From assembly GCA_964641255.1 (NCBI GenBank), contig CAZXMM010000001.1, positions 473,984 to 537,983 on the forward strand: a DNA stretch of 64,000 nt. Reading direction: 5' to 3'. How positions within the stretch are numbered: the first letter of the stretch is position 1; every line of letters begins with the position of its first letter. Below, piece after piece: positions 31,139 to 60,502 of this stretch. The notes below the pieces were generated by a model. That model was not told the origin of the DNA. It was given only the letters and a program-made list of their open reading frames with translations, and searched no databases. Source of the DNA: an uncultured Gammaproteobacteria bacterium. GTDB lineage: Bacteria; Patescibacteriota; Microgenomatia; JAMCZE01. The position numbers and the translations under genes were made by a program.

Positions 31139-32293
31139 ATGATACAGCAGCTCAAAAATTTCTTTCATTTGGGCGAAGCCATCGCGGCTACCATTGTCTT
31201 TGGTTTTCCTGGTCGAAAACTAACGGTCGTGGGAGTTACTGGTACCGATGGAAAAACCACCACCTCTACTCTGATCCACCATATTTTAGAAACCGCTGGG
31301 TATAAAACAGGAATTTCTTCCACCCTATCATCAGCTCATACTAGCACCCCAGGTAGATGGAGAGTGCAAAAGTTTTTAGCGCAATGCGTTAAAAACGGCT
31401 GTACCCATGCAGTACTCGAGGTTACCTCGATTGGTATTGACCAGCACCGGGTCTCTGGCACACCGTTTGCAGTGGGAGTGCTTACGAACATTGCTGACAA
31501 CGAGCACTTGGACTATCACAAAAGCTTTGCAAAATATAAAGCGGCTAAAATGAAGTTTCTTTTGTCCTGCAAAGTAGTCGTAGCCAACGCTGATGACCCC
31601 GTCTTTGCCGAACTTAAGCTACAGGCAAAAAACTCCAAAGTAATTAGTTTTGGACTGAAGAATCCTGCCGATGTTGATCGAAAAACACTGGCTTACACCA
31701 CTAAGTTGATTGGGGAATTTAATACCTACAACATCTTGGGAGCAATTGCTGCCACCATGGCGCTAGGGGTTGATAGTGGTATTATTACTCGAGCTATAAG
31801 TTCGTTTACTCCGCCACTAGGACGGCTCGAGATAGTCAAGAAAAAGCCTTACACAGTGGTGGTTGATTTTGCTCATACGCCCCAGGCATTTGAAAAAGTA
31901 TTGCCAGTAGCCAAAAGTCTTAAATTAAAAGTTTCTAATCGTTTAATTCATGTGTTTGGCGCTACGGGGGACCGAGACAAATCCAAGCGCCCCATCATGG
32001 CAACCATCGCAGCTAAATATGACGACAACATCATTCTTACCCACGAGGACACATATACGGAAAAAAGGGAGCGGATAATTTCGGAGATTGAAAAGGGGTT
32101 AATTGATAAGAAGTACGAAAACTACGAGAAGATTTTTGACCGGAAAAGCGCGATTGAGAAAGCACTTCTAATGGCAAGCCCTGGTGACGTAGTGCTAATT
32201 ACGGGTGTCGGACACCAAAAATCCATGAACGTGGATGGCAAAGAAATTCCCTGGAGTGACCAAAAAGTAGTCAAGGAGTTCCAAGGCAAGTAG
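31139..32293 (+). CDS. murE: Mur ligase family protein, MurE-like (UDP-MurNAc-L-Ala-D-Glu:diamino acid ligase) lacking the usual N-terminal domain
   Basis: P-loop 'VGVTGTDGKTTTSTL' lies only about 33 aa from the start. 'DNEHLDYH' and 'GATGDRDKSKRP' are present. dcw position between ftsI and murD. The DNPR meso-DAP motif is replaced by 'HEDTYTEKR'. Confidence 0.6.
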   Translation: MIQQLKNFFHLGEAIAATIVFGFPGRKLTVVGVTGTDGKTTTSTLIHHILETAGYKTGISSTLSSAHTSTPGRWRVQKFLAQCVKNGCTHAVLEVTSIGIDQHRVSGTPFAVGVLTNIADNEHLDYHKSFAKYKAAKMKFLLSCKVVVANADDPVFAELKLQAKNSKVISFGLKNPADVDRKTLAYTTKLIGEFNTYNILGAIAATMALGVDSGIITRAISSFTPPLGRLEIVKKKPYTVVVDFAHTPQAFEKVLPVAKSLKLKVSNRLIHVFGATGDRDKSKRPIMATIAAKYDDNIILTHEDTYTEKRERIISEIEKGLIDKKYENYEKIFDRKSAIEKALLMASPGDVVLITGVGHQKSMNVDGKEIPWSDQKVVKEFQGK

Positions 32294-32297
32294 GCCT

Positions 32298-33065
32298 ATG
32301 TTTAAAAAACACCCCTTAGGCTTTTATCAGTTGGAGAAGTTTTTGCTTCCGGCTCTTAAACATGGTTTTTCCACTAAATCGTTTGGCAATATGGCCTATA
32401 AATTTGGTGACAAAGCGACAGTGGACCAAAGCAGGATAAATTTTGCCAAAGCCGTTCCTATTAATCATCAACAAACCGTTCAGCTCAGTCTTAATCATGG
32501 GACTACGGTGGCGATTGCAGCGGGTGGAGATATTGGTCCACTCACTGATCTAGGCAGAGCCATCAGTGAGACTGACGCGGTCTTAACAAACCGGAGGGGG
32601 GTGGCCTTATGGATGATGACGGGAGACTGCGCCCCCTTCATATTTTTTGATCCGACCCAATCTGTTATTGGGATTGCTCACGCGGGCTGGAGGGGAACAA
32701 TCGGAAAGATTGCGGTGATGACCGTTGGTAAAATGGTGGCCGAATTTGGATCAAGACCCAAAGATATTCTAATCGGTATTGGTCCCACCGTGGAAAAGTG
32801 TTGCTACAGTGACAACGTAGATCCAATTCAAGCCCAGCTCCCCGAGTGGCAAAACTATGCGGTTAAAAACCCCGACGGAAAACATAGTGTGGATTTGAAT
32901 GGTTTTTCTATTCACGCACTGTTAGAAATAGGCATTCAAGAAGACAACGTTGATTTCGCTAACTATTGCACCCAAGATCATAGTGACGAGTTTTTTTGTT
33001 CGCAAGAAGAAACCGCACAAATAGCTAAGCCCGGAAGATTTGCTACGACTATTCAAATACAATGA
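32298..33065 (+). CDS. pgeF: Peptidoglycan editing factor PgeF (YfiH/DUF152 family, purine nucleoside phosphorylase/laccase-like)
   Basis: 'TNRRGVALWMMTGDCAPFIFFDPTQSVIGIAHAGWRGT' is the conserved Cys/His catalytic region of YfiH. Confidence 0.8.
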   Translation: MFKKHPLGFYQLEKFLLPALKHGFSTKSFGNMAYKFGDKATVDQSRINFAKAVPINHQQTVQLSLNHGTTVAIAAGGDIGPLTDLGRAISETDAVLTNRRGVALWMMTGDCAPFIFFDPTQSVIGIAHAGWRGTIGKIAVMTVGKMVAEFGSRPKDILIGIGPTVEKCCYSDNVDPIQAQLPEWQNYAVKNPDGKHSVDLNGFSIHALLEIGIQEDNVDFANYCTQDHSDEFFCSQEETAQIAKPGRFATTIQIQ

Positions 33066-33832
33066 ATAATGCACCGATTGCTATTTTTGACTCAGGACTG
33101 GGTGGACTCACTGTGGCCAAAGAAATCGTTGCGCAATTTCCCGATGAAAGCACGATCTATTTGGGTGATACCAAAAGGGTGCCTTACGGCACAAGAAGTG
33201 TGGAGGCAATTCGGCAGTTTGCCAAGGAACTAGTTACTTTTCTTCTTAAAAAACAGGCGAAAGTACTCATTGTTGCTTGCAACACAATGTCAGCCGTGGC
33301 GCTTTCGGAAATTAAAGCGATCTCTTCTGTTCCAGTAATTGATGTCATCACACCAACAGCGAAAGCAGCCACGGGAAGGGTGGTGGCAGTGATTGGTACT
33401 AACGCCACCATCAACAGTGGGGCTTATCAAAAAAAGATTGATCCCATAATAACAGTCATTGCCAAAGCTTGTCCGATTTTCGTTCCATTGGTGGAAGAAG
33501 GACTGGCACACAGACCTGAAGTGGAACCCATTGTTGAATATTACTTAAAAGATATTGTTGCTCAAAATCCTGATCAACTCATTCTTGGCTGCACCCATTA
33601 CCCTATCCTGAGGGAGGCGATTTGTAAGGCGGTAGGGACTATCTCTATTATTGACTCAGCTCAGCCAACCGCAAAAGCTCTTGGCGAGCTATTTTTAGAC
33701 GAAACTTTAGCCAGAGGAGAAGACCCTAGTCATGAATTTCTGGTTACAGACAGCGTGGAAAGGGCCCACAGCACAGTTGCCAACTTTTGGCCTGAAGCGC
33801 TACAGTATAATTGGAAGCAAGTCACCACATGA
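33062..33832 (+). CDS. murI: Glutamate racemase
   Basis: 'IAIFDSGLGGLTVAKEI...LIVACNTMSAVAL...GCTHYP'. Confidence 0.9.
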   Translation: MNNAPIAIFDSGLGGLTVAKEIVAQFPDESTIYLGDTKRVPYGTRSVEAIRQFAKELVTFLLKKQAKVLIVACNTMSAVALSEIKAISSVPVIDVITPTAKAATGRVVAVIGTNATINSGAYQKKIDPIITVIAKACPIFVPLVEEGLAHRPEVEPIVEYYLKDIVAQNPDQLILGCTHYPILREAICKAVGTISIIDSAQPTAKALGELFLDETLARGEDPSHEFLVTDSVERAHSTVANFWPEALQYNWKQVTT

Positions 33833-35190
33833 TTGATTTAAGAAATAAAAGAATAGCGGTTTTAGGATTTGGAATTGATACCTCTGATTTAATTGCCTGG
33901 TTTTTGGAACAGGGAATTAGCTTCACTGTTTGTGACGAAAATGAAAGCGTTGTTATTCCAGACAATTTAAAAAGTAAGTCAGAGCTACGCTTAGGAAAGG
34001 ACGCCTTTGCAAAGTTAACAGATTTTGATGTGATTGTGCGGAATCCTGCAATCTATCGATACCGCAAAGAAATCATTGAAGCTGAAAATAAAGGAGTAGA
34101 GATTACATCAAAAATAAAGATTTTTTTTGATCTGTGCCCGGCAAAGATTATTGGAGTCACAGGGACCAAGGGCAAAGGGACAACCTCAACTCTTGTGTAC
34201 CAAATTCTAAGAGATGCCGGAAAAGAAGTTTTCATCGGTGGAAATATTGGTTTGGGGATTTTTGATTTTCTTCCCACCCTCACAAAGAATTCCTGGGTGG
34301 TTTTAGAAATGTCGAGCTTTCAACTTATTGATCTTCATAAGTCGCCTCATATTGGTGTGCATTTGATGACAACTACTGATCATCTGGATTGGCATGTTAG
34401 TTCAGAGGAGTATGTGCGTGCTAAAGGCAATATCTTTAAATGGCAGAAGCTGGAAGACTTTGCAGTAGTGAATGCTGATTATCCCAATTCTCGTAAAAAT
34501 GGTGAACTTGGAGCCGGGAAAAAGTACTTTTTTAGTCGGAAAGAAAGACAGCAACCCGGAGCCTATCTTAAAGATCAGGCAATTTATCTTGATGATGAAA
34601 AGCTAATTGACATTTCTGAAATTCGCTTGCGGGGAGAGCATAATCAAGAAAACATCATGGCGGCAGCTTTAGCTGCAAGATTAGCGGGGGTGAATTTGCC
34701 GACAATAGTGCAAACAATTAAGAATTTTCGGGGACTTGAACACCGACTGGAAGAAGTGGCAACTGTTGGGGGTGTGACGTATTTCAATGATTCATTCTCA
34801 ACTGTTCCCGAAACAGCCATCGCGGCGGTTAAAGCCTTTAAAGAGCCGATTATTCTTATTGCTGGGGGTAGTGATAAAGGATCAGACTTTACGGAACTGG
34901 GAAAAGTGATTGCTGAAAGCAAAAATGTTAAAGCGGTGATTCTGATTGGCCTAATGACAGAAAAAATCCGCGAGGCAATTCACAAACACACAAACAAACC
35001 AGAATTCCAAATAGTTACAGGACTAAAAACGATGAAAGAAATTGTGAAGACGGCAAAGGCTTTAGCTAAGGCTGGGGATGTGGTTTTATTGTCTCCAGCC
35101 GCGGCCAGTTTTGATATGTTTAAATCATACAAGCACCGAGGGCAAGAATTTAAAGAACAAGTATTAAAATTGGCAGATTATGAAAGATAA
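33811..35190 (+). CDS. murD: UDP-N-acetylmuramoylalanine--D-glutamate ligase
   Basis: 'IIGVTGTKGKGTTSTLVYQIL...FIGGNIG' and the Mur ligase C-terminal domain. Confidence 0.85.
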   Translation: MEASHHMIDLRNKRIAVLGFGIDTSDLIAWFLEQGISFTVCDENESVVIPDNLKSKSELRLGKDAFAKLTDFDVIVRNPAIYRYRKEIIEAENKGVEITSKIKIFFDLCPAKIIGVTGTKGKGTTSTLVYQILRDAGKEVFIGGNIGLGIFDFLPTLTKNSWVVLEMSSFQLIDLHKSPHIGVHLMTTTDHLDWHVSSEEYVRAKGNIFKWQKLEDFAVVNADYPNSRKNGELGAGKKYFFSRKERQQPGAYLKDQAIYLDDEKLIDISEIRLRGEHNQENIMAAALAARLAGVNLPTIVQTIKNFRGLEHRLEEVATVGGVTYFNDSFSTVPETAIAAVKAFKEPIILIAGGSDKGSDFTELGKVIAESKNVKAVILIGLMTEKIREAIHKHTNKPEFQIVTGLKTMKEIVKTAKALAKAGDVVLLSPAAASFDMFKSYKHRGQEFKEQVLKLADYER

Positions 35191-36913
35191 AAAACGCCGC
35201 GTTCATATCATGGGCATTGGCGGTTCGGGGGCCAGTAGTATTGCCCGTTTGGCTCATGGCATGGGTTACGAAGTCTCTGGCTGCGATTTAGAAGAAGGGG
35301 TAAATACTAAAGCATTAAAGGTCGAGGGAATCCCTGTTTCCATAGGGCCCCACGATGTGGCTCATCTCGAAGGAATTGATATTCTTGCCCACACGGTAGC
35401 GGTTGATGATCAAAGTCCGAATGAGCGGGAATATCTGGAAGCGAAAACACGCGGCATTGCGATGACCTGGGAGCAGTTCCTTGCCAACTATCTGCATAAA
35501 GATAAATTTCTGATTGCTGTTGCCGGCACCCATGGTAAAGGAACCACTGCCTCGCTTTTGTCCCGAACACTAGAAAGCGCTGGATTGGATCCGACCTGTG
35601 AAATTGGTGCCAATCTTATTGACTGGGACAAGAAGAATTTCCGGATTGGGAAGAGTAAGTATTTTGTATCAGAAGCTGACGAGTATCGTGCCAAATTCTT
35701 ACACTATTCACCAAGTTTGATTCTTATCACATCAATTGAAATGGATCATCCTGATTTTTTTCCCACACTTGATAGTCTGTATGAAACCTTTTTGAAATTT
35801 GTCGGCAAACTGATTGGTCCCAAAGTTCTTGTTCTAAACAAAAATGATCACGGCTGTCAGGAACTGGTTAAAAGAATGTTAGGTGAATTGAAAAATGAAA
35901 TTAAGATTGTTTGGTACTCTAATTTGCCCGAGAAAGTGAATTTGCAACTTCCTGGTGAACATGTCCGCCAAGATGCCGCTGGGGCCTGGGCTGTTGCCAA
36001 AGAACTCGGTGTACCAGACAAAGAAATTAAGAAAGGATTGGAATCTTTCTCGGGACTGGAAAGAAGGTTTGAAATTCGGGGAGAAAAGGATGGCGTCGTC
36101 ATCATTGATGACTATGCCCATCATCCGACAGCGGTCAAAGTGAATATTGATGCGGTGCGAGAAAAATATCCCAATTCCAGGGTAGTGGCCCTGTTCCAAC
36201 CGCATATGTACTCCCGGTTGCAACTTTTGTTCCAAGAATTTGCCGATGCCCTTAGGGGTGCCGATAGGGTTTTTGTTACCGATGTTTACACCCGCCGCGA
36301 ACAAGGATTGACTCGTCCCACTGGTGAAGAATTGGCAGCAGCCGTTGGAGACAAAGCGAGTTTTGTTAAAGGCTCAACTGAAGAAATAGCGACAGCAATT
36401 AAACCAGAGCTTAACCATGGCGATGTACTTCTCGTTATGGGAGCGGGTGACATTTATAAAGTCTCAACATCATTGATAGCAGCAGACGTTGAAGAAACAA
36501 ACATCGGGGCCAACGCCCTTCTAGTAAATTCTAAAGGTGAGGTAATTTTGCAACAAAGGGACAATAATCCAAATATCTATTTCCCCGGGGGCATAACAAT
36601 GTTTGGAGGAACGATAAAAAAGGGAGACAGCCCCGAAGACGGTTTAAAGCGAGAACTTCTCGAGGAATTAAATTTGCAGGTGGAGCCAGGAAATGTAAAA
36701 AAATTTAATACTTACAAAAAAACCAAAGCAGTAGATGGAATCGATTACAGTGTGAACGTTTTTATCATTGAATCAGTTGAGATTAGCGATCTCACTTTAA
36801 ATGAAGGCGCTGGGTTCGTTGTTGCCCCCCCAATAGATTTATTAAAGAAAGATAAGTTAACAAGGATAACGAGGATAGCTCTTGAAGATTATTTAAAGGC
36901 TAGAGGACAATAA
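35180..36913 (+). CDS. murC: UDP-N-acetylmuramate--L-alanine ligase MurC fused to a C-terminal NUDIX-like hydrolase domain
   Basis: MurC N-terminus 'VHIMGIGGSGASSIARLAHGMGYEVSGCD'. The C-terminal ~130 aa carry a Nudix-box-like 'GGTIKKGDSPEDGLKRELLEELNL' (Gx5Dx7RELxEE). 577 aa versus about 450 for a typical MurC. Confidence 0.8.
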   Translation: MKDKKRRVHIMGIGGSGASSIARLAHGMGYEVSGCDLEEGVNTKALKVEGIPVSIGPHDVAHLEGIDILAHTVAVDDQSPNEREYLEAKTRGIAMTWEQFLANYLHKDKFLIAVAGTHGKGTTASLLSRTLESAGLDPTCEIGANLIDWDKKNFRIGKSKYFVSEADEYRAKFLHYSPSLILITSIEMDHPDFFPTLDSLYETFLKFVGKLIGPKVLVLNKNDHGCQELVKRMLGELKNEIKIVWYSNLPEKVNLQLPGEHVRQDAAGAWAVAKELGVPDKEIKKGLESFSGLERRFEIRGEKDGVVIIDDYAHHPTAVKVNIDAVREKYPNSRVVALFQPHMYSRLQLLFQEFADALRGADRVFVTDVYTRREQGLTRPTGEELAAAVGDKASFVKGSTEEIATAIKPELNHGDVLLVMGAGDIYKVSTSLIAADVEETNIGANALLVNSKGEVILQQRDNNPNIYFPGGITMFGGTIKKGDSPEDGLKRELLEELNLQVEPGNVKKFNTYKKTKAVDGIDYSVNVFIIESVEISDLTLNEGAGFVVAPPIDLLKKDKLTRITRIALEDYLKARGQ

Positions 36914-37979
36914 CTTCTCGTTCTAGCTCAATGTCATAGTTTTTTAAGATATCCTCCCGCATTTGTTCACTAAAGTCAAAAACTTCTTTTCCTGTTGCGC
37001 CCCCCAAATTTACTATAGATAAAGCTTGGTAGGAATGAGTGCTAACTTTACCAATGACTTTTCCTTTCCAACCAAGCTCGTCCAGAAGTCTTCCCGCGGG
37101 AACTTTGACATGATTTGCATGATCGAAGGTGGGGTCGTCGTGCATGGGGTAGGTAAGTTTATCAATCGGATATGATTGTAAATCAGTTACTTTAGTGGAT
37201 AATTCCATGAATTTTTCTTTTGTTACCACCGGATTTTTGAAAAAACTGCCAGCAGTGCCAACCTTATGCCAATCAGGTTGGGTGAATTTACGAATAGAAA
37301 TAATTGTTTCAGCAATATCAAGGGAAGAGTAAGGAGGCTTCTTTCCTGCTTTGTCTAGTTCGCTCTGGAGTGAGAATCGTAATCTGTGTAGCTCGTGATA
37401 ACTAGTGTCACTAAGGGGAACTTTTGAAAGTTTAACTCTCACTGAGCTGACTAAAAACTTTCCTCGGAGTTCTTTTTTAAAAACACTTTCCCTATAGGCA
37501 AACTTGCACTGTTCTTTTGTAAAAGTGGTCTTTTCGAAGGAATCCAAGTAGATTCCTTCGAGAGAATGAAAGATGTCTTCAAAGTTTTGACCGTAAGCAG
37601 CAATATTTTGGACTGGAGCTGCCCCCACGGTTCCCGGGATGTAAGCCATGTTTTCCATGCCGGACCAACCCTCATTGGCAGCCCACATCACAAACTCGTG
37701 CCAGTTTTCTCCCGAGGCCAGTTCGACCACTACCGACTCCTCGTCTTCGCTGATGATTTTCCTTCCTTTTAGTTCATTTTTAAGGATCAAGCCGTCAAAG
37801 TCTTTGGTAAAGAGAATATTGGCTCCTTCTCCCAGTACCAAGATCGGTAAGTTTTTAGGAAGCAGAGCTTTGAGACCTAACAGGTCCTCTTGGTCTTTTG
37901 GGACAACAAACTGACTGGCTAAAGCCGCCACATGGAACGTGTTTAAAGAGAGGAGGTCAACATTTTTTTGCAGCTTCAT
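36900..37979 (-). CDS. murB: UDP-N-acetylenolpyruvoylglucosamine reductase
   Basis: 'LSLNTFHVAALASQFVVPKDQEDL...ILVLGEGANILF' is the FAD-binding MurB N-terminus. It is convergent with murC, overlapping by 14 bp. Confidence 0.85.
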   Translation of the reverse strand: MKLQKNVDLLSLNTFHVAALASQFVVPKDQEDLLGLKALLPKNLPILVLGEGANILFTKDFDGLILKNELKGRKIISEDEESVVVELASGENWHEFVMWAANEGWSGMENMAYIPGTVGAAPVQNIAAYGQNFEDIFHSLEGIYLDSFEKTTFTKEQCKFAYRESVFKKELRGKFLVSSVRVKLSKVPLSDTSYHELHRLRFSLQSELDKAGKKPPYSSLDIAETIISIRKFTQPDWHKVGTAGSFFKNPVVTKEKFMELSTKVTDLQSYPIDKLTYPMHDDPTFDHANHVKVPAGRLLDELGWKGKVIGKVSTHSYQALSIVNLGGATGKEVFDFSEQMREDILKNYDIELEREVIVL

Positions 37980-38028: not shown

Positions 38029-39360
38029 ATGGCAAAATTCACTATCACCGGTGGCGCGCCACTAAAAGGCCGAGTGGAGCTCATGGGGGCCAAGAACGCA
38101 GGTTTTAAGGCCATGATTGCCACCCTTCTTGCTGATTCCCCATCAGAAATTCACGGGCTGGGGCTCATTTCAGAAATTGACTTTGCTCGGAGTGTTATTG
38201 CTAGCCTGGGAGGCCAAACCAGCACGCTTGTCGATCCCCACAATCTTCTTATTGACCCAAGGGGTCTAAACACCTTCGAAATTCCTTTGGCAATTGCCGG
38301 CAAATCCCGCTCGACTACCATGTATGTGGGACCTCTGTTACACCGGTTTGGCAAAGCCGTGTTGCCGTCTCCTGGTGGGGACCCCATCGGCAACCGCCCA
38401 GTGGATCGTCATTGGGAAGGGCTAAGGGCCTTGGGAGCAACCGTGTCCTCTCAAAATGGAGCCTATCTGGTGACGGCCCCAAACGGTCTCAAGGGGACTA
38501 CTTTTCGATTCGAAAAAAACACCCATACTGGCACCGAGACATTGATTTTGGCCGCGGCTACCGCCTCAGGCGACACTATCCTTGAAAATGCTGCCGCCGA
38601 GCCGGAAGTGGACGGTTTAATTACGCTTCTAAACGCCATGGGGGCCAGAATTCTCAGGCGCAGTCCCCGCACGATCAAAATCACCGGGGTTAAAAAACTG
38701 TCTGGAGTGCGTCATACCGTTATGAAAGATCGGATTGAAGCGGCAACCTTTGGTTGCATTGCTCTTGCTACCAAGGGTGACGTTACTGTTCTTGATGCCG
38801 ACCCACTAGTTTTAAATGATTTTTTGGTGAAGCTAAATGAAGTGGGGGGTAGATGGGAAAAACTGGATGATGGGATTCGTTTTTGGTGGGACAGGCCCCT
38901 AGTGGCCACCAATCTTGAGACGGCTCCATACCCAGGGTTTATGACTGATTGGCAGCCGCTCTGGACCACTCTCATGACTCAGGCTAGTGGCACCTCAGTT
39001 GTCCACGAAACCATTTTTGAAAGTCGGTTTGCCTACGTAGATGATTTAATGGCAATGGGCGGACAGTTTGATTTTTTTAATCCTCCCGTAACTAACCCCG
39101 ACGAGGTTTATAATTTTGATCTTAAAGACCAAAAAGCCGAGACCAGGCACGCCGTCAGGATCTTTGGTCCAGTAAATTTTAGTCCCAAATCAATTGAAGT
39201 AGCAGATATCAGGCGGGGAGCCACAGTCCTATTGGCCGGTCTGATGGCACAAGGGGAGACAATTCTTAGTGATCCTTTGGATCAAATGAAACGAGGCTAC
39301 GAGGATCTTCCCGGTCGCCTGATTAAACTTGGGGCTCACATTAAAGTTGAAGACTCTTAA
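38029..39360 (+). CDS. murA: UDP-N-acetylglucosamine 1-carboxyvinyltransferase
   Basis: 'FTITGGAPLKGRVELMGAKNAGFKAMIATLLA'. ATG at 38029 is preferred over the upstream GTG at 37939, which would overlap murB. Confidence 0.9.
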   Translation: MAKFTITGGAPLKGRVELMGAKNAGFKAMIATLLADSPSEIHGLGLISEIDFARSVIASLGGQTSTLVDPHNLLIDPRGLNTFEIPLAIAGKSRSTTMYVGPLLHRFGKAVLPSPGGDPIGNRPVDRHWEGLRALGATVSSQNGAYLVTAPNGLKGTTFRFEKNTHTGTETLILAAATASGDTILENAAAEPEVDGLITLLNAMGARILRRSPRTIKITGVKKLSGVRHTVMKDRIEAATFGCIALATKGDVTVLDADPLVLNDFLVKLNEVGGRWEKLDDGIRFWWDRPLVATNLETAPYPGFMTDWQPLWTTLMTQASGTSVVHETIFESRFAYVDDLMAMGGQFDFFNPPVTNPDEVYNFDLKDQKAETRHAVRIFGPVNFSPKSIEVADIRRGATVLLAGLMAQGETILSDPLDQMKRGYEDLPGRLIKLGAHIKVEDS

Positions 39361-57712: not shown

Positions 57713-58477
57713 ATGTCAAAAATTTCTGTAGTTATACCCACATATAATAGTGAAGATCTACTGGGTCGATGTTTGTCGAGTATTAAGTGGGCAAACGAAA
57801 TTATTGTTATCGACATGGGTTCCACGGACAAAACTGTAGAAATTGCTAAAAAGTTCGGCGCTAAAATATACAAGCGTATCCCGCTTAATGGTAATTTTGA
57901 TCTTAACCGAAAGTATGGAATGCAACTTTGTAAGGGCGACTGGATTTTAAAGTTGGATAGTGACGAGGTTTTGAGCAGCGAGCTTCAAGATGAGATTAAG
58001 ACCTTCTTGAAAAATGACACAAAAGAAAAAGCTAATGGATTTTATTTCTATAATAGACTTTTTTGGTTTGGGCTGCAGATAAAGCATGGTTGTGTTAAGC
58101 CAAAATCTCATGAGTTGCGCTTAGTTAGAAACGGGCACTGGCAATATGAACCGTTTTGTTTTCACCAGCTAATAACCGTGAATGGGAAAGTTGGTTTCTT
58201 TAAGAATTACTACGACCACTATAACTATAGAACGGTTTCCGAATTTATCCAAAAAACAAACAATTACACTTCGCTTGATTCAAAAATAATCGCTAGCGCA
58301 AAGAGATATGGGTTTACACAGAGTATATTCTTTCCGTTTGCCACTTTTTTTCGATTATATTTTTTCCAAAAAGGATTTATTGACGGTAATATAGGATTTA
58401 TTTCCAGTTTTCTATTTTCTTTCTATAATTTTGTGCTTAAGACCAAGGTTTGGGAGCAACACAACTGCAAGCAATAA
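57713..58477 (+). CDS. Glycosyltransferase family 2
   Basis: 'ISVVIPTYNSEDLLGRCLSSI...IIVIDMGSTDKT..LDSDE'. Confidence 0.8.
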   Translation: MSKISVVIPTYNSEDLLGRCLSSIKWANEIIVIDMGSTDKTVEIAKKFGAKIYKRIPLNGNFDLNRKYGMQLCKGDWILKLDSDEVLSSELQDEIKTFLKNDTKEKANGFYFYNRLFWFGLQIKHGCVKPKSHELRLVRNGHWQYEPFCFHQLITVNGKVGFFKNYYDHYNYRTVSEFIQKTNNYTSLDSKIIASAKRYGFTQSIFFPFATFFRLYFFQKGFIDGNIGFISSFLFSFYNFVLKTKVWEQHNCKQ

Positions 58478-58478
58478 T

Positions 58479-59351
58479 TTATTTGTAAGCAAATATAATT
58501 ATATCCTGGAATATACCTTGCTCAAACGGTGCTTTTAGTGGGGTCGTTAGAAGGTATGAAAATTTATTGTTCTCGAGAATTCTTAGAAATTTAGACAAAT
58601 CATCAGGTTTTTCTGAATGGTGATGATGATATTCTGTCACTATTTTTTTAATAAGTGGGAGCCGCTTACTTTTCTGTAGTTCTGCAAGAACTACGTCTTC
58701 AGCCCCCTCAATATCTAACTTTAGAAGATCAACCCTTCCTTTTATGAAGGGGGATAGGGTTTTGGCCTCAACAGTTTTAGGCCTGTTGATTGCTTTTCGC
58801 ATGGAATAAACACTTTTATAGAGACTATTTAATCCGGATCCAGGTTCAGTTGGGTTTGAGTAAAATTTTATTCGAGTGTTCTTATCATAAACTGCATAGT
58901 TATAAATCTTGACATCGCGTAAGTTGTTTTCTTCAACGTTTCGCTTAAGTAGTCTAAAGGTAATAGGATCAGCCTCAAAAGTAATTATTTTAGCTGTGGG
59001 GTAAAGCCACTTAAAGTAAAGTGCAGTATCGATGTTTCCGCCGCAATCGAATATAGTTGGACTTTTAGAATCTGGTTCAAAATAGTATTCATTTCGAATA
59101 TATGATTCCTCAAACAAATGAATATAGTGAATCAGACTATAAAAGTTGATGGTATAGTCAAATATTTGAACGCTTTTAAGTTTAAAACCAAGTATAATCT
59201 CGAATAGGATATGCTTTGCACATAGCTCAAAGTAGGTTTTAAGGATTAGCCATTTTTTGGGTTTGATTGGGGCGGGTAGTTGTATCCAGATTGATATGCA
59301 ATTTCTGAAAAAGCTTTTGGTTGATTGGAGTAATATGAATAGACTATTCAT
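58479..59351 (-). CDS. FkbM-family methyltransferase
   Basis: 'FDCGGNIDTALYFKWLYPTAKIITFEADPITFRLLKRNV' fits the FkbM domain. The long N-terminal extension may not be real. Confidence 0.65.
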   Translation of the reverse strand: MNSLFILLQSTKSFFRNCISIWIQLPAPIKPKKWLILKTYFELCAKHILFEIILGFKLKSVQIFDYTINFYSLIHYIHLFEESYIRNEYYFEPDSKSPTIFDCGGNIDTALYFKWLYPTAKIITFEADPITFRLLKRNVEENNLRDVKIYNYAVYDKNTRIKFYSNPTEPGSGLNSLYKSVYSMRKAINRPKTVEAKTLSPFIKGRVDLLKLDIEGAEDVVLAELQKSKRLPLIKKIVTEYHHHHSEKPDDLSKFLRILENNKFSYLLTTPLKAPFEQGIFQDIIIFAYK

Positions 59352-59368
59352 GGTTGTTTGATTTTACT

Positions 59369-60502
59369 ATGAAAATAGCGATAGTACGAGGGGACTATTT
59401 ATCCTCATGGGAAATATCAAATTATTTGAGTCTTCTTAAGAATAATGAGGTTACTATCTTCATTGGGAGAGCACCAGTGTATAAAGTGGCAATACCGTCA
59501 AGTTTTAAGGTGGTTTCTTTAATTTCCCCAGCTGATTTAAACTTCGGAAAGGTTTCGAGAATAAAAATGTCAATACTTAATAGATTATTTATTGACGCAC
59601 ATTTGTTATTTGGTCTTGAGCAGAGGCTAAAAGACTTCGATGTAGCTTATGTGTCCGAAACGTTTTACGGTTTTACCCAACAATGTATATGGGCGAAAAA
59701 CAAAGGATACTTGAAAAGTGTAGTTAGTCACGCTAGTGAGAACACGCCTTTTAATAATGAAGGAATCTGGGGAAGAAAAGCTTTCAAACAAAGAGCTTTA
59801 AAAGAGGTTGATAAATTTGTAGCAATTACGGAGGGCGCTAAAAAGGTGTTGTTACAAGAGGGCTGTGATCCTAAGAAAATCGTTCGGCTGCAGCCAGGTG
59901 TTGATCTGGAAGTTTTTAAGCCAGTTAAGGTCGTTAAATATCGTAATCTTGATAAGAATAAAAATGTGAAATTACTTTTTGTGGGTAGGTTAGTTCCAGA
60001 AAAGGGAATTCTTCAAATTATGGAAAAGTTTTCCAATCTTTATAAAAAACATCCTAATATCGAATTAATTATTGCAGATCGGGGCCCCTTAGCGCCTCTA
60101 GTTGAGGAGTTTGCAAAAAGCCATAAAAATGTTTTCTATTTAGGAAGAATTGACGATTATTCAAAAATGAACCAGCTGTATTCCTTGTGTGACATATATT
60201 TACATTATTCTATAGGTTCCAGTACCTGGGTAGAACAATACGGTTTCACTCCGATTGAGGCAATGGCTTGTGGGCTTCCGGTTCTTGGTCTTGATAAGGG
60301 ATCGGTCAAAGAAGTAGTAAGAGAAGGCGGATTTGTTGTAGATGCAAAAAAGTATGATAGTATACTGGAAAAGCTAATACTGGATTCAGGACTTAGAAGT
60401 AGGACAGGTAAAAAAGCGCTAAAATTAGTTAATAAAAGATATAACGCACTTCAACATGGCAAGGATCTCGAAAAAATCTTCAGAGCTACACTGTCAGCAT
60501 AA
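59369..60502 (+). CDS. Glycosyltransferase family 4
   Basis: 'MKIAIVRG' N-terminus and 'FTPIEAMACGLPVLGLDKGSVKEVV'. ATG at 59369 is preferred to the upstream TTG at 59354. Confidence 0.8.
   Translation: MKIAIVRGDYLSSWEISNYLSLLKNNEVTIFIGRAPVYKVAIPSSFKVVSLISPADLNFGKVSRIKMSILNRLFIDAHLLFGLEQRLKDFDVAYVSETFYGFTQQCIWAKNKGYLKSVVSHASENTPFNNEGIWGRKAFKQRALKEVDKFVAITEGAKKVLLQEGCDPKKIVRLQPGVDLEVFKPVKVVKYRNLDKNKNVKLLFVGRLVPEKGILQIMEKFSNLYKKHPNIELIIADRGPLAPLVEEFAKSHKNVFYLGRIDDYSKMNQLYSLCDIYLHYSIGSSTWVEQYGFTPIEAMACGLPVLGLDKGSVKEVVREGGFVVDAKKYDSILEKLILDSGLRSRTGKKALKLVNKRYNALQHGKDLEKIFRATLSA

Follow-up and report, generated by a model that had tools for sequence, protein, structure and literature searches.

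A MurC ligase joined in frame to a small Nudix hydrolase domain in the cell-wall gene cluster of a Microgenomatia bacterium

The window analysed here is a stretch of 64,000 nucleotides from contig CAZXMM010000001.1 (assembly GCA_964641255.1) of an uncultured bacterium that GTDB places in the Microgenomatia, within the Patescibacteriota. It carries a division and cell wall (dcw) gene cluster in which murC, predicted to encode the ligase that joins L-alanine to UDP-N-acetylmuramate (UDP-MurNAc), runs on into a Nudix hydrolase domain. The resulting open reading frame (ORF), murC::nudix, is uninterrupted from its ATG start and encodes 577 residues plus a stop; its parts are as follows.

35180..36913, plus strand: whole fused murC::nudix ORF, from the ORF list; its exact product is recorded with the Pfam domains Mur_ligase, Mur_ligase_M, Mur_ligase_C and NUDIX
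35180..36484, plus strand: MurC part (UDP-N-acetylmuramate--L-alanine ligase), residues 1-435, from TIGR01082, Pfam, motifs and Foldseek
36479..36502, plus strand: fusion junction or hinge, residues 434-441, IAADVEET, from homologue alignments, the structural model and the DNA
36485..36910, plus strand: Nudix domain, residues 436-577, from PF00293, free-standing orthologues, AlphaFold and Foldseek
36608..36676, plus strand: Nudix box variant, residues 477-499, GTIKKGDSPEDGLKRELLEELNL, from a regular-expression match, with R491, E492, E495 and E496 as the catalytic core

To judge from profile matches and modelling, both halves are complete and folded, and both keep their catalytic motifs. The MurC half passes the NCBIfam murC equivalog TIGR01082 (369.5 bits against a cutoff of 335.1), with residues 8-432 spanning model positions 2-448/449, and Pfam recognises all three ligase domains (Mur_ligase, PF01225, at 8-102; Mur_ligase_M, PF08245, at 114-233; Mur_ligase_C, PF02875, at 295-423). 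The motifs GTHGKGT (116), EADE (165), GLERRFE (292) and DDYAHHP (310) are intact, and in Foldseek the modelled structure matches the MurC proteins of Haemophilus influenzae and Yersinia pestis (1p3d, 1p31 and 4hv4) with TM-scores (TMt) of 0.84-0.85 and root-mean-square deviations of 2.6-2.8 Å. The closest homologues share 52-60% identity, and the natural ends of ten homologues align with the C-terminus of this half. The model for bifunctional MurC-Ddl proteins, NF011171, failed at 217.5 against 1015 bits, matching only across its MurC part (positions 3-448/809). We infer an ordinary UDP-MurNAc:L-Ala ligase. The AlphaFold model of the full-length fusion has a mean predicted local distance difference test score (pLDDT) of 90.7 and a predicted TM-score of 0.80.

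The tail is equally recognisable. PF00293 (NUDIX) matches residues 442-524 with 42.3 bits and an E-value of 9.6e-11, above the gathering score of 21.1, as the profile search proposed in the first-pass annotation had anticipated; the tail alone scores 44.9 bits. Used as a query, residues 430-577 retrieved 29 free-standing proteins of 139-159 residues, at 47-60% identity and over 91-99% of the query. The E-values of these matches, 1e-43 to 1e-34, place the Nudix identity of the tail far beyond chance. Modelled by itself, the tail adopts a canonical single-domain Nudix fold (pLDDT 92.6), and Foldseek returned 589 matches in the PDB at E<=0.001, the 50 listed being nearly all of the Nudix/MutT family with TM-scores (TMq) of 0.63-0.78. 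It is a single domain of about 140 residues, with no accessory substrate-binding domain. The first-pass annotation was therefore right that a complete MurC is followed in frame by a C-terminal Nudix domain, and imprecise about their extents, since the ligase ends at about residue 435 rather than 450, and the tail corresponds to a whole protein of about 142 residues rather than a domain of about 125.

The Nudix box proposed in that annotation, Gx5Dx7RELxEE, is present at residues 477-499, and is a variant. The strict consensus GX5EX7REUXEEXGU is not satisfied, owing to aspartate in place of glutamate at position 7 and asparagine in place of glycine at position 22, and only a relaxed pattern matches; REUXEE is kept. 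These two departures, together with the recognition of non-enzymatic Nudix-fold proteins as a class (PMC5389931), might suggest a non-catalytic module, which would bind a nucleotide or nucleotide-sugar and regulate MurC allosterically. However, the metal-binding and catalytic core REx2EE is intact, its R, E and E are invariant in an alignment of 32 subfamily members, and the same aspartate and asparagine are common to the free-standing orthologues, none of which has a MurC to regulate. Such a non-catalytic role is very unlikely.

Structural and profile relatives place the tail among small, single-domain Nudix enzymes, without assigning it to any one of them. Among the 60 matches listed for the subfamily profile, the best solved relative is Escherichia coli NudG/ORF135 (2rrk), a CTP pyrophosphohydrolase, at 1.1e-7 and with the longest aligned stretch, followed by BdRppH, and then MutT, NudI and MTH1. 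Like NudG, MutT, NudI and MTH1, which are its best profile matches and among its best structural ones, the tail is a lone Nudix domain of the 130-145-residue kind; unlike them, it belongs to a subfamily with conserved motifs of its own, and it falls far below the equivalog cutoffs. The sub-threshold NCBIfam matches are to mutT (TIGR00586, 25.5 against 97.9 bits), NudG (NF007834, 21.9 against 156) and NudI (NF012016, 19.1 against 95). Foldseek TM-scores are similar for GDP-mannose mannosyl hydrolase, MutT, YfcD, RppH, NudI and NudB, and fold comparison therefore has no power to separate the substrate classes.

The BdRppH match raises the possibility of an RNA 5'-end hydrolase, which would remove a pyrophosphate or a UDP-sugar cap, with the link to MurC tying precursor metabolism to mRNA decay or to decapping. 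When a single sequence is searched against the PDB, BdRppH ranks first (3ees, 3.7e-5), and the structural neighbours include RppH and its complexes with DapF (7sp3, 6vck and 6d1q). The Escherichia coli RppH-DapF complex (6d1q, 6vck; PMC6061855) resembles the present protein as a Nudix enzyme physically joined to an enzyme of peptidoglycan-precursor synthesis, and DapF stimulates RppH (PMC4227774, PMC6061855); the action of MurA, MurB and MurC on capped RNA offers a further comparison. Yet that association is non-covalent, its partner is DapF, and its substrate is the 5' end of RNA. The similarity of the tail to BdRppH is essentially confined to the region of the Nudix box. Furthermore, the tail fails all of the RppH models (NF001934-NF001938) by a wide margin, at 12-19 bits against 116-259; genes of RNA metabolism adjoin the orthologues in none of the contexts seen; and MurC is not known to act on capped RNA physiologically. 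Overall, an RppH-like function is improbable.

At the junction, the natural C-terminus of MurC directly precedes the natural N-terminus of the Nudix protein, and the stop codon, the spacer and the start methionine are all absent. The ten closest MurC proteins end 2-7 residues beyond a conserved ...GAGDIYKVSxxLL, at which point the window reads ...VSTSLIAA. The free-standing orthologues start M-[VI]-D-x-EETNIGAHALL, beginning directly at the first Nudix strand, where the window has ...SLIAA-D-V-EETNIGANALL; in the fusion it is the C-terminal domain of MurC that precedes the Nudix domain. Hence only two codons, GCA GCA, separate the last MurC-like residue from the first Nudix-like residue, and where the orthologues have their start methionine the codon is GCA, which agrees with ATG at no position. 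The assembled reading, within 36440-36520 of the window, is ...TCATTGATAGCAGCAGACGTT.... As modelled, MurC closes with a helix at 425-433 and the Nudix domain opens with a strand at 442-449; the block 431-440, around the hinge, has a pLDDT of 64, lower than that of either domain.

Two other readings of the junction were considered and set aside. A frameshift was suggested by the +1 frame, which has TGA TAG exactly at the junction, yet it is the current frame that fits both the MurC homologues (...VSTSLI) and the Nudix homologues (DVEETN); as one frame matches both sets of homologues up to the join, no frameshift is indicated. A separate Nudix product made by internal initiation was also rejected, the only in-frame candidate being TTG at 36473 (residue 432). 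Shine-Dalgarno motifs are rare even at true starts in this genome, and so their absence at this TTG is uninformative.

An error of sequencing or assembly, or a chimera, might still have removed a stop between a murC and a Nudix gene that are truly separate. This explanation draws on the fusion being found in one genome, all homologues of either half being unfused. The exact 577-residue product occurs on three contigs, drawn from NCBI (including one of 950,062 bp) and Logan assemblies; these possibly go back to shared or related reads, in which case they are not independent samplings. Against this, the DNA is identical from two assembly pipelines, with a Logan contig from SRR14932608 matching the window at 100% over 7,734 bp, junction included. 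The halves share one frame with two codons between them and the start methionine also gone; the loss of stop, spacer and start together requires a clean deletion or several changes, rather than a single base error. The GC content of the tail, 0.387, is close to that of murD, neighbouring genes having 0.399-0.498, and both domains of the fusion model well. The Nudix half is 51-60% identical to its own orthologues and the MurC half 52-60% to its homologues, comparable values that give no sign of Nudix decay. An artefact is therefore very improbable, and we hold with high confidence that the architecture and the fusion are real.

The MurC-Nudix fusion is a singleton among the sequences searched, and is lineage-restricted. 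Protein searches display cluster representatives only, and within that scope the best 120 MurC homologues are all of 479 residues or fewer and lack a NUDIX domain, and none of the best 150 cluster representatives is a MurC fusion. A query spanning the junction found only free-standing Nudix proteins, covering 38-51% of its length; 15 metagenomic loci all stop short of the MurC part; and a full-protein search of genome contigs returned only distant MurC proteins (32-38% identity) and no fusion, its matches being dominated by the generic peptide IIDDYAHH. The 90%-identity cluster containing the window protein is represented by an unrelated-looking JGI fragment of 51 residues, P0303 (LCFGMLALG...), which is why the protein's match to itself is missing from the homology search; this seems to be a quirk of clustering, of a sort that can conceal proteins. 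The first-pass annotation had held that absence of the extension from closely related genomes would point to an artefact. The extension is indeed absent from every related MurC; however, none of these is closer than 60% identity, meaning no truly close genome entered the comparison, and the junction is reproduced base for base in an independent assembly.

The same annotation had called the fusion unusual, a view that holds both in these searches, which found no second example, and in the literature on MurC, Nudix proteins, the dcw cluster and peptidoglycan in Patescibacteria, where no description of a MurC-Nudix fusion was found. A survey of Mur chimeras, which screened proteins of more than 600 residues, reports MurE-MurF, MurC-Ddl, MurC-MurB, MurG-MurC, MurD-FtsW and MraY-MurG only (PMC10214165), such that the known partners are limited to Mur proteins, Ddl, FtsW and MraY. 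Like these, the window fusion unites a Mur ligase of the dcw cluster, in frame, with what a neighbouring gene encodes; as in one class of MurE-MurF chimeras, virtually no linker stands between the C-terminus of one protein and the N-terminus of the other. It is unlike them in that the partner is a Nudix hydrolase rather than an enzyme of the peptidoglycan pathway, in its length of 577 residues, below the >600-residue filter, and in its occurrence in one genome. It is best classed with the known Mur chimeras, as a dcw ligase joined without a linker to its neighbour, the new element being a hydrolase as partner.

The surrounding dcw cluster is of the typical Patescibacteria, Microgenomates-like form, with the order mraZ, rsmH, ftsL, ftsI, a short murE-like gene, a Cu-oxidase_4/YfiH gene, murI, murD, murC::nudix, a convergent murB, murA, mraY, ftsW, murG, ftsA and ftsZ. 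The nearest genes are as follows.

31139-32293, plus strand: murE-like ligase of 384 residues, with Mur_ligase_M and Mur_ligase_C and no N-terminal domain
32298-33065, plus strand: Cu-oxidase_4 (YfiH/PgeF-family) gene, from Pfam, between the murE-like gene and murI
33062-33832, plus strand: murI, from Pfam
33811 or 33829-35190, plus strand: murD, from Pfam, overlapping the start of murC
36900..37979, minus strand: murB, from the Pfam domains FAD_binding_4 and MurB_C, convergent with murC::nudix

At their 3' ends, murC::nudix and murB share 14 nucleotides (36900-36913), and no terminator-like hairpin was found between them. Two gene starts differ between sources: murD begins at TTG 33811 in the longest ORF and at 33829 in the Logan gene call (453 residues), while murA begins at GTG 37939 in the longest ORF and at 38029 of the window in the Logan call (443 residues). 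The short murE-like form also occurs in L004 and L005, at 370 and 354 residues. In the syntenic relative L005, the slot of the Cu-oxidase_4 gene is occupied by a Nudt16-like Nudix gene of 163 residues; the possibility that the 163-residue Nudix genes of L001 and L005 form one mur-linked family was rejected, since the two align at 39% identity over 46 residues and are not orthologues. Further along the window, positions 58001-60000 have a GC content of 0.348, against 0.40-0.47 elsewhere, and could be a foreign or AT-rich segment.

The tail belongs to a small subfamily, of which a few members have a named source, in each case within the Patescibacteria. The subfamily is marked by the motifs D-x-EETN-[IV]-G, ILQQR[DE], FGGT and KLTRITR, and it recurs in several fused architectures. 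Firstly, proteins of about 340-350 residues join an N-terminal HAD-IA phosphatase to a C-terminal subfamily Nudix domain (P0153, P0157, P0162, P0166, P0179 and P0235), an arrangement found in at least six 50%-identity clusters among the tail's closest relatives. Their HAD part is below the cutoff in all equivalogs, among them the models for epoxide-hydrolase N-terminal phosphatase, YjjG nucleotidase and glucose-1-phosphatase, and is therefore assigned to no specific phosphatase family. Secondly, the fusion partner in more distant relatives is an AAA_33/zeta-like kinase or an HD domain. Thirdly, in P0194 (1396 residues), an isoleucyl-tRNA synthetase-like class-I enzyme (tRNA-synt_1, Anticodon_1, DUF5915) has a low-molecular-weight phosphatase (LMWPc) at 249-385 and a subfamily Nudix domain at 405-533 inserted within it. 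LMWPc genes also adjoin free-standing orthologues (L091 and the P0146 contig), a recurrence of the LMWPc-Nudix association. The window protein resembles the HAD-Nudix fusions in having the same subfamily at the C-terminus of a two-enzyme polypeptide, and differs in that its partner is MurC and the fusion a singleton, whereas theirs is a HAD-IA phosphatase and recurrent.

Free-standing orthologues occupy varied neighbourhoods, with only two of about 12 independent gene contexts in a mur cluster. In the P0150 lineage, seen in four samples, a stand-alone orthologue gene is flanked by murB and murC; its start codon shares bases with the murB stop (TAATG), and it converges on murC. The slot matches that of the window, although the orientation is opposite, and the lineages are distant, at 33% identity for MurC and 41% for the Nudix. 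The mur cluster of that lineage in L102 (4510-5865 and 7449-10337) also has a MurL-type epimerase (PF26299/PF26298) beside a MurD-like ligase, and two PF01225-containing Mur ligases side by side. In the closest syntenic relative of the window, the gap of 214 nucleotides between murC and murB is empty. Elsewhere, the envelope-related neighbours are two class-A penicillin-binding protein (PBP1a) genes in one context, and undecaprenyl-diphosphate synthase (UppS) with mevalonate-pathway genes in another. In this latter, Woesebacteria-type context, with L106 (9076-9594) and L108 (4881-5399), the gene for the orthologue has an overlap with one for a PEMT/ICMT methyltransferase and is oriented towards the undecaprenyl-diphosphate synthase gene; mevalonate-pathway kinases and a decarboxylase are accompanied there by a second Nudix gene, of 172 residues, which might be of the isopentenyl-diphosphate isomerase type. 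Three contexts have neighbours of a sanitation type, namely a MutT-like Nudix with DNA-alkylation repair, a Ham1/ITPase, and LMWPc with uracil-DNA glycosylase and a dNK-like/AAA_33 kinase. The remaining contexts have unrelated neighbours.

The reading we favour, in which our confidence is about evenly balanced, is that the Nudix half serves nucleotide-type house-cleaning and that its fusion is incidental. Originally, a small Nudix gene would have stood at the convergent junction of murC and murB, and the two genes would have become one when the stop of murC, the spacer and the start codon of the Nudix gene were lost in frame, giving a predicted product of two self-contained enzymes on a hinge of about eight residues. 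The Nudix half would then work autonomously as a Mg2+-dependent pyrophosphohydrolase, resembling the small MutT/NudG/NudI type, most likely acting on nucleoside di- or triphosphates in nucleotide-pool sanitation, possibly with a pyrimidine bias, and the fusion would provide co-expression with the cell-wall operon rather than substrate channelling with MurC. This is supported by the nucleoside triphosphate-type affinity of the profile, the sub-threshold equivalogs and the bare single domain, as well as by the sanitation-type neighbours and the scarcity of mur contexts. The HAD fusions, with their weak YjjG-like similarity, would fit a path from NTP to NMP to nucleoside.

Several observations weigh against house-cleaning. 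Firstly, a distant second lineage has a member of this rare subfamily between its murB and murC genes, translationally coupled to murB, and two mur placements are unlikely to arise by chance, if they are independent. Secondly, other orthologues lie beside the two class-A PBP genes and beside the UppS gene. Thirdly, the glucose-1-phosphatase scores of the HAD partner would fit cleavage of NDP-sugars equally well. Fourthly, SP_1669 of Streptococcus pneumoniae resembles NTP and NDP hydrolases in fold, yet acts on UDP-MurNAc and UDP-MurNAc-L-Ala, making similarity to NudG and MutT weak evidence of substrate.

The alternative to which these observations point is that the Nudix half cleaves UDP-MurNAc, UDP-MurNAc-L-Ala or mis-ligated UDP-MurNAc-amino acids to UMP and a sugar-1-phosphate, thereby trimming flux or removing faulty products. 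It is akin to the proposal of the first-pass annotation, that the domain hydrolyses UDP-sugar or nucleotide by-products or regulates the flux of peptidoglycan precursors, which has an experimental precedent and some backing in gene order. In addition to the fusion with MurC itself, the murB-coupled orthologue and the PBP1a and UppS neighbours, it can draw on the HAD fusions, which could dephosphorylate the sugar-1-phosphate, in keeping with their sub-threshold glucose-1-phosphatase matches. The same operon also encodes the YfiH/Cu-oxidase_4 family protein, and E. coli YfiH/PgeF edits UDP-MurNAc-Ser/Gly. The precedent is SP_1669, encoded in a ddl-murF operon, which demonstrates that a Nudix enzyme can cleave both the substrate and the product of MurC; its kcat/KM is 800 M-1 s-1 for UDP-MurNAc and 2,900 M-1 s-1 for UDP-MurNAc-L-Ala (PMC3655063). 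Its UDP-X diphosphatase/CDP-Chase family comprises proteins of 200-210 residues with an N-terminal helix-loop-helix bundle bearing the motif GUXXarX2DXXarDX[E/D]RXar (PMC3655063). The window Nudix is like SP_1669 (4HFQ; the Bacillus cereus CDP-Chase family) in its genetic tie to mur genes, whereas it is a bare domain of about 142 residues and fused, rather than a separate protein with an N-terminal helix bundle. Neither the 60 profile matches listed nor the 50 Foldseek matches shown include 4HFQ; with the helix bundle also missing, the tail stands outside the SP_1669 family, although it may hydrolyse UDP-MurNAc(-L-Ala) nonetheless.

Besides this lack of kinship, cleavage of Mur intermediates is opposed by the roughly ten of about 12 orthologue contexts that are outside mur clusters, three of them adjoining nucleotide or DNA-sanitation genes; by the closest syntenic relative, which has nothing between murC and murB; by the singleton nature of the fusion; by the permissiveness of convergent operon ends for insertion; and by the low kcat/KM of SP_1669 itself. 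Hydrolysis of these precursors is consequently a tentative proposal, and on balance unlikely. Its fuller form, in which the Nudix would be a cis-acting undo or proof-reading module on the substrate or product of MurC, working alongside the YfiH/PgeF-family enzyme three genes upstream and representing a Patescibacteria-wide family of precursor-pool Nudix enzymes, is doubtful; a more remote version has the Nudix decapping UDP-MurNAc-capped RNA made by MurA, MurB and MurC. These estimates reflect a low prior for a Nudix acting on Mur intermediates, a mur linkage that is strong and of two instances, the mostly non-cell-wall contexts, and the NTPase-like affinities.

Mur-ligase chimeras serve as evidence for a cytoplasmic complex of Mur enzymes and as leads for inhibitor design, and all of the chimera partners described are cell-wall or division proteins. 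If the Nudix destroys the substrate or product of MurC, then the window protein would be a different kind of chimera, combining synthesis with controlled breakdown, and would offer a natural handle on whether Nudix enzymes regulate or proof-read UDP-MurNAc pools, the question raised by SP_1669. If instead it is a plain nucleotide sanitiser, the fusion would represent the merging of neighbouring genes in a streamlined genome, and counsel caution over singleton 'Rosetta-stone' fusions. In either case, the fusion points to an uncharacterised Nudix subfamily restricted to Patescibacteria, whose partners extend from MurC to a HAD phosphatase, a P-loop kinase, an HD domain and an insertion within a tRNA synthetase.

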